This document shows positions 13,023 to 15,266 of a stretch of DNA of 55,796 nucleotides, in pieces. Origin of the DNA: a virus (taxonomy: Duplodnaviria; Caudoviricetes); IMG/VR virus record IMGVR_UViG_3300028198_000005, positions 1-55,796 of that record; one strand, 5' to 3'. The stretch's first letter is position 1, and each line of letters begins with the position of its first letter. The notes under the pieces were generated by a model, which saw nothing but the letters and a program-made list of their open reading frames with translations, searched no databases and was not told the DNA's origin. Position numbers and translations under genes: made by a program.

Positions 13023-13058
13023 AAAAAAAACAACCCCTCGGCGTTGGCCAAGGGGTTG
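13023..13058 (-). terminator. rho-independent terminator
   Basis: CAACCCCT/AGGGGTTG stem with a T8 run on the minus strand. Confidence 0.7.
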
Positions 13059-13111
13059 CAGTTATGAGAGAAAACGCATTCCAAGATACGAGAATGCGTT
13101 CTCAAGAGATT

Positions 13112-13351
13112 TTAGAAAAGCCTCATGCTTTTAGCAAGCTTTTTCAAAAGGCTTTCCTTGCTTTCCAAGTAGCTCTCTACCTCTTCGCTTGTTGCGAGAC
13201 GTAGACTCTTGGCTTGCACGGAACCTTCTTCGCGCTTGTGATGTTCAGTCACTACCCGTGTGTTGCTGAACTGATTGGATATAACCCTTTCGACTCTCTT
13301 CTTTGGGACGTTGAAGTAGAGTGAACCGTTTCGTATGTCTTTGGTTTTCAT
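13112..13351 (-). CDS. hypothetical protein
   Basis: 79-aa ORF with its own TTGACT...TATACT promoter. Confidence 0.65.
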   Translation of the reverse strand: MKTKDIRNGSLYFNVPKKRVERVISNQFSNTRVVTEHHKREEGSVQAKSLRLATSEEVESYLESKESLLKKLAKSMRLF

Positions 13352-13392
13352 AACCGAGATAAGTATAGATTAAACAGGAGAAGGAGTCAAGT

Positions 13393-13671
13393 CTATTCTG
13401 AAATTGCTTGGCGTATCTTTTTCATCTTACCCTTCAAAAATGAAATAGCATCACAATTTTTGGCGTTGGTCTGCATGATGTGGCTCAGACTATATTCTAT
13501 TTTGCGCGTAAAGTCTTTGCGTAACGCATCCAACTTATCTGCATCTGCTCGCTTTATTGCGCGAGTCTTCTTGGCCGCTTTCTTCTTGTCAGCCTTCTTT
13601 ATTAAATGTTTAGTCTTCACTTTTTTTTCTCCGAATGCCTCTAGTAACTTGTCGTAATTGCTTACCTTCAT
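13393..13671 (-). CDS. Lys-rich hypothetical protein
   Basis: ATG at 13671 (MKVSNY). Confidence 0.6.
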   Translation of the reverse strand: MKVSNYDKLLEAFGEKKVKTKHLIKKADKKKAAKKTRAIKRADADKLDALRKDFTRKIEYSLSHIMQTNAKNCDAISFLKGKMKKIRQAISE

Positions 13672-13682
13672 ATTAAATAAAA

Positions 13683-14203
13683 TGGTGGCGGGAGTATTTG
13701 TGTACCCGCACCTTTTCAGTCCCCAGAAAACAAATGTTTCAGATCGACTTACTTCGGACTCACCCACGATTTTCCTCTGCCACTAGGCCGTTGTACTTCT
13801 CGCAGTCGCTACGTTACCCCTTTGGGAGGGGTTATTCCGTCACACCGAACTCTCTCCGTCGAGAGAGAAATTGATTTGAATGGCGGTCAATCAAGGGAGA
13901 AATCTCAGCCACCGGCTCCAACCCCAGTAAGCTCAGCAAAGCCCCGCTGCATCTTAATAGCAATCTGCACCATTCAAAATTAAATGAGTTGTTACCGCGC
14001 CACCAGTAAATGCACAGGTAAGTCCTGCTCCAGCGTAAGATGTCTTACCATCCCTGTCCCTAGCGCGTTTATAGCTTAAGGGCGACGGAGGCGTATTTAA
14101 ATCACCAACTCAAATTCAAAGAACAATTAAAAAGTGTCAGGGGTGATTAGCATTGCGTTCCCGCCCTAATCTTTTTTTGTTAAGTCAGCCCTGCCTGACT
14201 CGC
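13683..14203 (-). ncRNA. cluster of about four putative structured non-coding RNAs
   Basis: ORF-poor, more GC-rich 520 bp made of units each closed by terminal complementary ends; upstream TTGACA-N17-TAGACT promoter. Confidence 0.5.
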
Positions 14204-14240
14204 ATTTTATGAAAGCTCCCCTAAGGGAAAGTATAGTCTA

Positions 14241-14516
14241 TCAGCTTTCTGTTTCGCTGTCAACCTGAAAATCATCCTTTGAAGGAATTTGATTCTCTTT
14301 TAGACTCTTGCGAATGTACTCCAAAGCTACGCGCTGCTTCGCAACGGTAAGTTTGATTTGATTCAAGCTCAAGTCGTTAGCCTCTTCCAAGAAACCGAGA
14401 GCATCACCTACCATGCGAATCTCTTTAACAGCTTCGCGCTGGTTGCTGCTTCTGCGTTCGATTTCGTCTCTCCCCGCTTTAGTGCGGGCCTGTAACCAAT
14501 GTAATGGGATATCCAT
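14241..14516 (-). CDS. hypothetical protein
   Basis: 91-aa ORF, GTTATG start behind a promoter. Confidence 0.6.
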   Translation of the reverse strand: MDIPLHWLQARTKAGRDEIERRSSNQREAVKEIRMVGDALGFLEEANDLSLNQIKLTVAKQRVALEYIRKSLKENQIPSKDDFQVDSETES

Positions 14517-14529
14517 AACTTTTTATATA

Positions 14530-15123
14530 TTACTTTGTTTCTGCTTGAAGGTCAAGCAAATTTTTCATCTTATCCTTTGGGGTATAGAAAATATTGTAGT
14601 GCGGCCCGATAGCGGTCTTGTCTCGGATGATCACCCTGTCAGACTTGTGAATGGGTGTTTTCTCTACATCATCAACAAAAGTCTCATGTTTATAGGGGTT
14701 GTAATACCCTCCGCGAAAATCTTCGCTCGACTCTGGGACGCATTGCTCGCAGTAGTCGTATGGTTTGTCGCTACAGTCACAGATACTGTACTTTTCGTAT
14801 AACTCATTATCAACCTCGCGAAAGCGTTCCTTGGAAACGTCACCAATCTCATGACATTTTCCGACAATATAAGCGTGAACATTCTTACGCTTTTCCCGAA
14901 GGACTCGCTGCCGACCTGCTGGCTGAACCCGAAACTTGGCATCATGCAATTCGACACGGTGAGCATGGCAGTATAACAGTCCCGTCTCAGCATCGATCAC
15001 CGACAGGCAATCCAAGTTCAGATTAAAATAAACCTTCACACGATCCGGTGCGACTTCGATGCCGTCTACCATCTTGCGTGGCCCTGCATCCTTCCAACTA
15101 ATGAATCCTTTTCTTTCCCTCAT
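14530..15123 (-). CDS. conserved phage hypothetical protein
   Basis: VYFNL...GRQRVLREKRKNVHAY...YNPYK..TFVD motif, with a Cys-rich insertion. Confidence 0.7.
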   Translation of the reverse strand: MRERKGFISWKDAGPRKMVDGIEVAPDRVKVYFNLNLDCLSVIDAETGLLYCHAHRVELHDAKFRVQPAGRQRVLREKRKNVHAYIVGKCHEIGDVSKERFREVDNELYEKYSICDCSDKPYDYCEQCVPESSEDFRGGYYNPYKHETFVDDVEKTPIHKSDRVIIRDKTAIGPHYNIFYTPKDKMKNLLDLQAETK

Positions 15124-15192: not shown

Positions 15193-15266
15193 TGGACGCG
15201 AGGGACGGAATCGAACCGTCAATTGTTCTTTTGCAGAGAACCGTCTTACCGTTTGACCACCCCGCG
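15193..15266 (-). tRNA. tRNA-Cys(GCA)
   Basis: Cloverleaf: acceptor CGCGGGG/CCTCGCG, anticodon arm GTTCT-CTGCAAA-AGAAC, T arm GACGG-TTCGATT-CCGTC, U73 and encoded CCA. Confidence 0.92.

Follow-up and report, generated by a model that had tools for sequence, protein, structure and literature searches.

The minus strand of IMG/VR virus record IMGVR_UViG_3300028198_000005 carries, at positions 13683 to 14230, an array of structured RNA units whose closest described counterparts are the small stable RNAs of phage T4, tandem riboswitches, the long RNAs GOLLD and ROOL, and the manA RNA motif. The window (the whole stretch of DNA analysed, positions 1 to 55,796 of the record) is a 55.8-kb piece of an uncultured tailed phage with a CheckV completeness of 38%. 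The T4 RNAs C and D are folded molecules that lie between transfer RNA (tRNA) genes, belong to a multi-RNA precursor, and are released by tRNA-processing enzymes. Known tandem riboswitches repeat one or two aptamer classes, each with its own expression platform. GOLLD and ROOL are carried by phages. Both are described as long, multi-domain, protein-free folded RNAs that form homo-oligomeric assemblies, as manA does (Kretsch et al. 2025, PMC12286853). The manA motif (RF01745) was described by Weinberg et al. in 2010 (PMC2864571), and its function was still called unverified in 2023 in a paper on S-CREM1 (PMC9964418). According to a recent preprint, manA RNAs self-assemble in vitro by kissing loops into decamers and 60-mer cages visualized by cryo-electron microscopy (cryo-EM); the same preprint, in 2026, calls the motif “putative cis-regulatory” (10.64898/2026.07.01.735769). 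The motif has been an orphan RNA since 2010, and its RNA-only cages are a recent report.

At the window locus, four autonomous and evolutionarily mobile RNA folds (D, C, B, and the manA-class unit A, in the order of transcription) follow a conserved promoter. The array then continues, without a terminator-like or promoter-like site, into a conserved gene for a small basic protein. Unlike GOLLD and ROOL, whose domains form one interlocked fold, the domains of the array are separate closed units that are joined by A/U linkers and shuffled in relatives, and the array RNA runs into a protein gene. The T4 RNAs C and D are likened to the array by description; unlike them, the array has its own promoter and a downstream open reading frame (ORF), and no tRNA flanks it (the nearest is 1.3 kb away). 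As in tandem riboswitches, several folds stand serially in one 5' leader, but here the four units are unrelated, lack expression platforms, and vary in number and order. The composite reading favored here, which is given an even chance, is that these are architectural RNAs arranged round a manA-class core, tied to the basic protein, and maybe separable at the A/U linkers. The features of the locus, all on the minus strand, are as follows.

14263-14235, minus strand: sigma-70-type promoter TTGACA-N17-TAGACT with a TG extension (10 of 12 matches), overlapping the stop codon of a 91-amino-acid (aa) ORF (14516-14241)
14216-14229, minus strand: 5'-terminal leader hairpin UUCCC-UUAG-GGGAG, minimum free energy -6.1 kcal/mol, z -1.43
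14133-14202, minus strand: module D, H-type pseudoknot, with stem 1 formed by AGUCAG (14200-14195) and CUGACU (14188-14183)
14193-14189 and 14142-14138, minus strand: stem 2 of D, CAGGG with CCCUG, joining the loop of the first hairpin to the strand behind the second
Within D, minus strand: loop 3, made up of an A-rich stretch and a hairpin insert in which GAUUAG (14171-14166) pairs with CUAAUC (14150-14145) outside an inner stem, GCG/CGC, capped by a GGAA loop (14161-14158)
14112-14132, minus strand: A/U-rich linker between D and C, of the UUUUUGUUCUUUGAAAAUUU type, which recurs in relatives
13986-14111, minus strand: module C, long form, with P1 GAGUUG/CAACUC, P2 GGYG/CGCC, and CCC/GGG round a central hairpin
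Within C, minus strand: hairpin GGGAUG-GUAAGA-CAUCUU, a variable hairpin, and P4 UUAC-UGGUGGCGCG-GUAA with its loop at 14005-13996
13875-13978, minus strand: module B, three-way junction, with P1 UUUGAAUGG/CCAUUCAAA, a variable arm P3, and the conserved junction strand UUGA(C/U)CG
13963-13947, minus strand: P2 hairpin of B, UUGC-UAUUAAGAU-GCAG
13683-13867, minus strand: module A, a manA-like unit matching RF01745 and ending in the invariant ...CGCCACCA (CCACCA end)
13672-13682, minus strand: A/U-only spacer UUUUAUUUAAU of 11 nucleotides (nt) between the manA-like 3' end and the ATG, with no Shine-Dalgarno word
13393-13671, minus strand: gene for a 92-aa lysine-rich basic protein of no known family, ATG at 13671
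13030-13059, minus strand: first strong intrinsic-terminator-like site downstream, a 13-bp stem followed by a T run, behind a small ORF (13351-13112)

Related loci, numbered here with the prefix L, provide the comparisons. The downstream protein, used as a query, led to viral contig L002, which has the same promoter followed by D, a shorter C, and A, with no B. Further viral contigs were collected by means of short conserved words, and at least 119 contigs from marine metagenomes matched a composite pattern for the A unit. The full set comprises 130 arrays, with 81 distinct complete A units. Architecture was read from the 97 distinct arrays with at least 700 nt of upstream sequence, in which modules were recognized by regular expressions that divergent copies can escape. 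These arrays show 17 module orders: D-C-manA and C-manA (22 arrays each), manA alone (19), D-F-C-manA (9), the window order D-C-B-manA (6), and twelve rarer ones. The manA-like unit stands last, and D, when present, is always first. Whole modules are gained or lost between relatives (e.g., B is absent from L002, and C is short or long), which breaks every reading frame and excludes conserved coding in the region; the roughly 550 nt behind the promoter contain short ORFs only, none of them conserved. Two additional modules were seen in relatives. Module F, about 170-230 nt long and closed by CTCTTGAG.../...CTCAAGAG, lies between D and C in 17 of the 97 arrays (e.g., L013 10300-10470, L027 6200-6440, and L057/L059) and shares the word GAGCTATAAACGCG with long-form C. 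A small module E (GCACCTAG...CTAGTTAGARGTAGCAC) is found in L012 between D and C, in L018 and L022 behind C without manA, and in L216.

Module D is an H-type pseudoknot, both stems of which are kept by compensatory change. Across 63 distinct copies, the consensus pairing joins C-N-GGG in the loop of hairpin 1 to CCC-N-G. The variable pair of stem 2 is kept in all 63 (A-U in 34, U-A in 17, and G-C in 12), compared with a shuffle mean of 31.7 and with 0 of 5000 shuffles reaching this count; the extraction had left both N positions unconstrained. A variable pair in stem 1 is likewise kept in 63 of 63 copies, in four types (A-U, U-A, G-C, and U-G), and the remaining pairs are invariant. These counts were made by script because the MAFFT alignment of D (A5) puts the 3' strand of stem 2 out of register. 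The inserted hairpin with its GGAA loop is present in 47 copies and missing from 16. A strain variant in the contigs of sequencing runs has a double compensatory change in the inner stem of D (14163/14156 and 14162/14157).

Module B was found in 38 distinct copies, both in the arrays and in other phage contigs that have no manA or tRNA nearby, often as tandem pairs. The alignment takes in 37 of these (a 152-nt copy from L046 was omitted) and 16 pairs, namely P1, the P2 hairpin, and the base of P3. Pairing is 92.6%, against 66.8% in shuffled alignments, and both partners have changed in 13 of the 16 pairs; for covariation the score reaches 0.634 versus 0.178, and none of 500 shuffles attains the observed value. 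The 3' junction strand of the window copy, GAUUGACCG, deviates slightly from the CAUUGA(U/C)CG of most copies. B is absent at its position in L002, L012, and L013. Tandem copies about 20 nt apart occur in L025 (7271-7518, with a short C between them), L030, L032, L034, L035, and L055. The second B of a pair ends about 14 nt before an ATG, and its layout of fold, A/U spacer, and start without a Shine-Dalgarno word is the one seen at manA in the window.

Module C is known from 56 distinct copies, 27 of the short form and 29 of the long form to which the window copy belongs. Among the four units it has the most conserved sequence and the least covariation. Pairs were counted in the long form (32 copies, 22 pairs), where 99.6% are paired and 6 pairs have changed on both sides: three of four in P4, whose loop UGGUGGCGCG is invariant, two of six in GGGAUG/CAUCUU, and one of three in CCC/GGG. 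An alternative hairpin, GUAAG/CUUAC, has no both-side change. P1 is invariant in long forms, and its 100% pairing in the array survey follows by construction from an extraction that demanded six pairs and is no evidence. In L018, L022, and L025, C has no manA-like unit with it; in L020 and L023 it lies between manA and a terminator-like hairpin. The word CGCCUCC (14051-14045, minus strand) is invariant in 32 of 32 long-form copies and continues as CCUCCUU(U/A) in three; the short form has ACCCCUG there. We take CGCCUCC and its continuation to resemble the anti-Shine-Dalgarno end of 16S ribosomal RNA.

Module A matches Rfam manA from 13866 to 13678 over model positions 1-192 (43.3 bits, E 1.4e-9). 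A is a divergent manA subfamily rather than a textbook member; among other copies, that of L002 scores 38.1 bits against RF01745, and that of L021, which adjoins a C module, scores 56.3 bits and passes the gathering score. The match takes in the hairpin CUCUCUC-GACG-GAGAGAG (13867-13850), which is accordingly part of unit A. The likeness runs from end to end: the 5' hairpin with its GACG loop, a second hairpin, and a 3' hairpin with the closing strand are all shared, and A is marine, phage-borne, and placed directly upstream of a gene, as manA is. Unlike manA, A always ends in CCACCA, has middle helices of its own, and follows other RNA modules. Its gene partner is one small basic protein family and not the mannose/fructose, nucleotide, and photosynthesis genes named in the original description (PMC2864571). 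Oligomer formation is known only from cryo-EM of other manA members.

RNAalifold, applied to the manA-like set, closed the junction otherwise than the Rfam architecture, and the Rfam-guided structure (81 distinct relatives, 9 helices, and 45 pairs) was used for counting. In this structure 97.9% of cells are paired, compared with 41-48% when the partners are slid; 20 of the 45 pairs have changed on both sides, and 0 of 500 shuffles reach the observed value. The 5' hairpin (GAcg-type loop) is aligned with high posterior probability, and four of its seven pairs have changed on both sides. Also aligned are the second hairpin, GUGaCUGAAUAA...UAAgGu (GUGAC.GAAUAA...UAA.GU), with both-side changes in two of three outer and three of six inner pairs, and the 3' hairpin UGugGGUA...UCCcaC, which is 100% paired with three of five pairs changed on both sides. 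The unit's own middle helices (62-69/102-109, 82-84/89-91, 121-124/151-154, and 130-135/140-145 of alignment A2) have both-side changes in 8 of 20 pairs. The closing helix GGUG/CACC is pairable in 81 of 81 copies and never varies, and a C-A mismatch occupies the first pair of the model. Invariant or frequent G-U pairs (e.g., U66-G105, in 81 of 81 manA-like copies) would be A-C mismatches on the other strand, and the structure therefore belongs to the minus-strand RNA. In L113, L149, L154, L189, and L213, another conserved, RNA-looking stretch (GCCGGTGCTGGTATGGTTTGA...) replaces the basic-protein gene behind the manA-like unit.

No Rfam match was obtained for B, C, or D, whether in the window at gathering scores, in 13400-14500 at E up to 10, or in 14 related loci at gathering scores, where Rfam returned six tRNAs and one manA only. 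The other three rows of the 13400-14500 scan (E 1.6-8) are at chance level. Models of GOLLD, ROOL, and other large ornate RNAs likewise found nothing in the window at gathering scores or, with E up to 10, in 13400-14500. The region has no match among known riboswitch families and no terminator-like platform; the closing helix, 11 nt from the ATG, is the sole candidate for an expression platform.

A preliminary description of the window, made from its sequence without database searches, had proposed a promoter-led cluster of about four putative structured RNAs, separated by AT linkers, with no credible ORF over about 550 bp. The compensatory changes in relatives bear out the cluster: pairs have changed on both sides in A, B, and C, and variable pairs are kept in D. 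The four units lie where they had been placed, with the complementary ends described; the absence of a credible ORF agrees with the unconserved short ORFs and whole-module differences seen here; and the promoter was recovered with its layout preserved in relatives. The positions of A and D held, but the hairpin at 13850-13867, listed there as a separate element, is the 5' hairpin of manA, and the pairing CAGGG/CCCTG that makes a pseudoknot of D is an addition to the two D hairpins described earlier. The suggested Rfam comparison, which was to include manA, matched A, though below the gathering score, and left B, C, and D without a match.

The -35/-10 layout of the promoter is kept, with a different spacer, in relatives L002, L012, L013, and L216, and a strict-pattern promoter lies within 160 nt upstream of D in 30 of 57 arrays. 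Transcription probably starts near 14228. The leader hairpin may act as a 5' stabilizer; relatives carry a different hairpin at this variable site. There is no promoter-like site between D and manA in any of 62 arrays, and no terminator-like site on the minus strand from 14230 to 13393. The linkers between C and B (8 nt), between B and A (7 nt), and between A and the ATG (11 nt) consist of A and U only; A/U linkers are likely endonuclease (RNase E-type) sites able to free the units. A contig from an RNA library spans 13168-14367, which is weak support for one transcript since DNA may be present in the library; such contigs cannot show transcription, ends, or levels, and the parts they leave uncovered carry no meaning. 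A 104-nt contig of a relative's manA-like RNA (window 13736-13777) from metatranscriptome run X18 has a word depth of 36.5. Contigs of flanking genes in the same run have depths of 2.5-4.6; contig depth cannot rank genes, and accumulation of the manA-like RNA is a hint only.

Among the 111 arrays with enough downstream sequence, 105 have an ATG-initiated ORF of at least 40 aa within 80 nt of A, and the distance from CCACCA to the ATG is 11-17 nt in 100 of those 105. In 98 of the 111, the ORF belongs to the same small basic protein family, which is represented by 75 distinct proteins. The protein matches no Pfam or PHROG family, and the Atlas gave only its own cluster; its 51 database relatives are all from metagenomes or viruses, none with a Pfam domain. 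AlphaFold predicts a helical hairpin of one long helix and a short one (predicted local distance difference test score, pLDDT, 73.8), for which Foldseek found no match in the PDB at E <= 0.001. One source labels two relatives “ZapD”, and no family match backs this label.

These observations give manA, through the locus and at least 119 related marine contigs, a fixed genetic partner in the small basic protein family, together with companion RNA modules; they add to manA a promoter-to-gene architecture, a pseudoknot, and a protein link. Literature searches on manA, its phage contexts, and large ornate RNAs yielded, at the level of the paper listings, no account of manA with companion modules or a partner protein. 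Three structured RNA families (B, C, and D) that are absent from Rfam, supported by covariation, and drawn from abundant ocean phages join the catalogue. Binding of the protein to the RNA, docking of the C loop on the manA tail, and the cutting apart of units have become concrete questions.

In the composite reading, the units would be structural RNAs in their own right and not a chain of ligand sensors. The manA-class unit would be the constant core, with a functional link to the small basic protein: it could govern a start that lacks a Shine-Dalgarno word 11 nt behind the closing helix, or form a ribonucleoprotein (RNP) with the protein. The 5' end would be guarded by D and the 5' hairpin, the loop of C may dock on the manA-like tail, and the A/U linkers would probably be cut to release the units. 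The docking of C is suggestive only. Its loop UGGUGGCG is exactly complementary to the manA-like 3' strand CGCCACCA, the transcript's only 8-nt complement of the loop (-14.9 kcal/mol), and the variable position of the contact, in 24 distinct combinations, is C-G in 8, U-A in 9, U.G in 7, and C-A in none. Docking would have to compete with the closing stem of manA. A bolder extension, which should be regarded as a long shot, makes the array a kit for a heteromeric RNA or RNP assembly: manA would supply a shell or ring on which C docks by UGGUGGCG and B and D by conserved loops, the protein would be cofactor or cargo, and linker cleavage would both free the parts and make a near-leaderless messenger RNA (mRNA). 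If true, no multi-component RNA nano-assembly from nature would have come with a genetic parts list before this one.

Several points weigh against the composite reading. Folding energy is not significant for the whole region (z -0.89) or for its units (D -1.84, C -0.27, B -0.82, leader -1.43, and manA-like unit -1.07); it is no better than that of shuffled sequences, and the case for structure therefore rests on relatives. The window copy of A falls below the RF01745 gathering score (43.3 versus 55.2 bits), and two middle stems of the manA model are unaligned or mismatched in it by cmscan, so that cage formation by this subfamily is an extrapolation. The invariance of the closing stem GGUG/CACC leaves it unproven by covariation. 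The 19 of 97 arrays in which a manA-like unit stands without other detected modules indicate that those modules are dispensable. The C-loop/tail pairing was seen post hoc, its energy is matched by shuffled loops in 4.4% of trials, and its co-variation follows clades; viral contig L021, which has another manA subtype, shows a C-A mismatch there. The RNA evidence consists of library contigs only, which are uninformative on ends, processing, and abundance. The tight junction with the ATG suits a plain cis-regulatory leader equally well.

Such a leader would be a 550-nt 5' untranslated region (UTR) whose units are sensors of a ligand, of temperature, or of a protein (perhaps the basic protein, in autoregulation) and set translation or stability, with nothing released or acting in trans. 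This is considered possible, though unlikely. Because the array abuts a conserved gene, its last helix lying 11 nt from the ATG, a role in cis is no less likely than one purely in trans. The manA-like 3' helix keeps its distance of 11-17 nt from the ATG (100 of 105 arrays) and its gene family (98 of 111), B in other phage contigs also ends about 14 nt before an ATG, and manA has been put forward as a candidate riboswitch that regulates in cis from 5' UTRs (PMC2864571; PMC9964418). The lack of a Shine-Dalgarno word would make the start depend on access to the A/U-rich stretch beside the closing helix, which also favors regulation in cis. A leader acting only in cis is harder to reconcile with four unrelated units that are shuffled, and gained or lost whole between close relatives, unlike the known tandem riboswitches. 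It also does not account for the absence of an expression platform (terminator or anti-terminator) between the units, or for the position of C in L020 and L023, downstream of manA and before a terminator-like hairpin.

A role as decoys, in which the units would imitate tRNAs or other host RNAs or would be sponges for a host defense nuclease, an RNA-binding protein, or parts of the ribosome, is thought very improbable. The invariant CCACCA end of the manA-like unit, the C loop UGGUGG complementary to such an end, the anti-Shine-Dalgarno-like word CGCCUCC of long-form C (32 of 32 copies), and the phage's own tRNA-Cys nearby all speak for it. Mimicry of tRNAs and an anti-defense or sponge role had both been put forward in the preliminary description. 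The mimicry found no support here: neither ARAGORN nor the Rfam tRNA and transfer-messenger RNA (tmRNA) models, at E up to 10, find a tRNA- or tmRNA-like element in the region, nor did these searches point to another known fold of that sort. The helices supported by covariation have no cloverleaf-like arrangement, the CCA runs on into the leader of the gene, and Pfam and PHROG identify no defense or anti-defense genes beside the array. That the region does not act as RNA at all, and is a DNA element (an origin, packaging site, or recombination site), a set of chance inverted repeats, or a group of small peptide genes, deserves almost no credence and is already contradicted. The nonsignificant folding energy, the presence of short ORFs, and the placement of modules at joints where relatives differ would fit it; however, compensatory changes preserve pairing, including G-U pairs workable only on minus-strand RNA, and neither a pseudoknot nor a three-way junction has a counterpart in duplex DNA. 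Insertions and deletions of modules break every reading frame, and the Rfam manA match (E 1.4e-9) likewise argues against it.

The region 13380-14520 is found near-identical in 14 marine or seawater DNA runs, and among the runs listed (n=24), some part of it occurs in 20, from 16 studies. Cultured-phage records searched by blastn with 13300-14600 gave no match. Among 185,579 species-representative genomes the array is present in one, L216, a 15.8-kb contig of a metagenome-assembled genome labeled Enterobacterales; this may be a binned phage contig that gives no firm host. In the same genomes, 36 matches to the B pattern include no real B, and 29 matches to the C pattern include one real C, that of L216, which is also the only match to the manA-like pattern. 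Upstream of the array, the 91-aa protein (ORF 14516-14241, minus strand), as a query for related loci, found no relative. The array had also been likened to RNAs accompanying tRNAs in large phages, which does not fit the position of the only tRNA.

15193-15266, minus strand: tRNA-Cys (ARAGORN), the sole tRNA, about 1.3 kb upstream of the array with two ORFs between

A tRNA of any kind is present in 57 of the 130 related loci. A same-strand tRNA-Cys was matched 44 times across these loci, commonly 1.3-2.0 kb upstream of the manA-like start and never adjacent to it. Elsewhere in the window, 3 of 10 large proteins match PHROG families (an unnamed family, the terminase large subunit, and a tail fiber), and the terminase shares at most 25% identity with its best cultured-phage relatives, too little to point to a host. 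The structural region (34416-55502) is very novel, with 7 of 10 large proteins lacking a PHROG family at E <= 1e-5. Early genes (window 23609, 23303, 21908, 18432, and 17390, minus strand, and also 18701) share the start ATGAGAGA, ATGAG(A/G)GA(C/T), which lies about 10 nt behind a TTGAC-N17-(GATAAT/TATACT) promoter. The mRNAs of these genes would have almost no leader, in keeping with how few Shine-Dalgarno words the window has (in a crude count, such words precede 10 of 46 long ORFs). With several early promoters only about 10 nt before the start, the 550-nt leader of the array is an exception in this phage.

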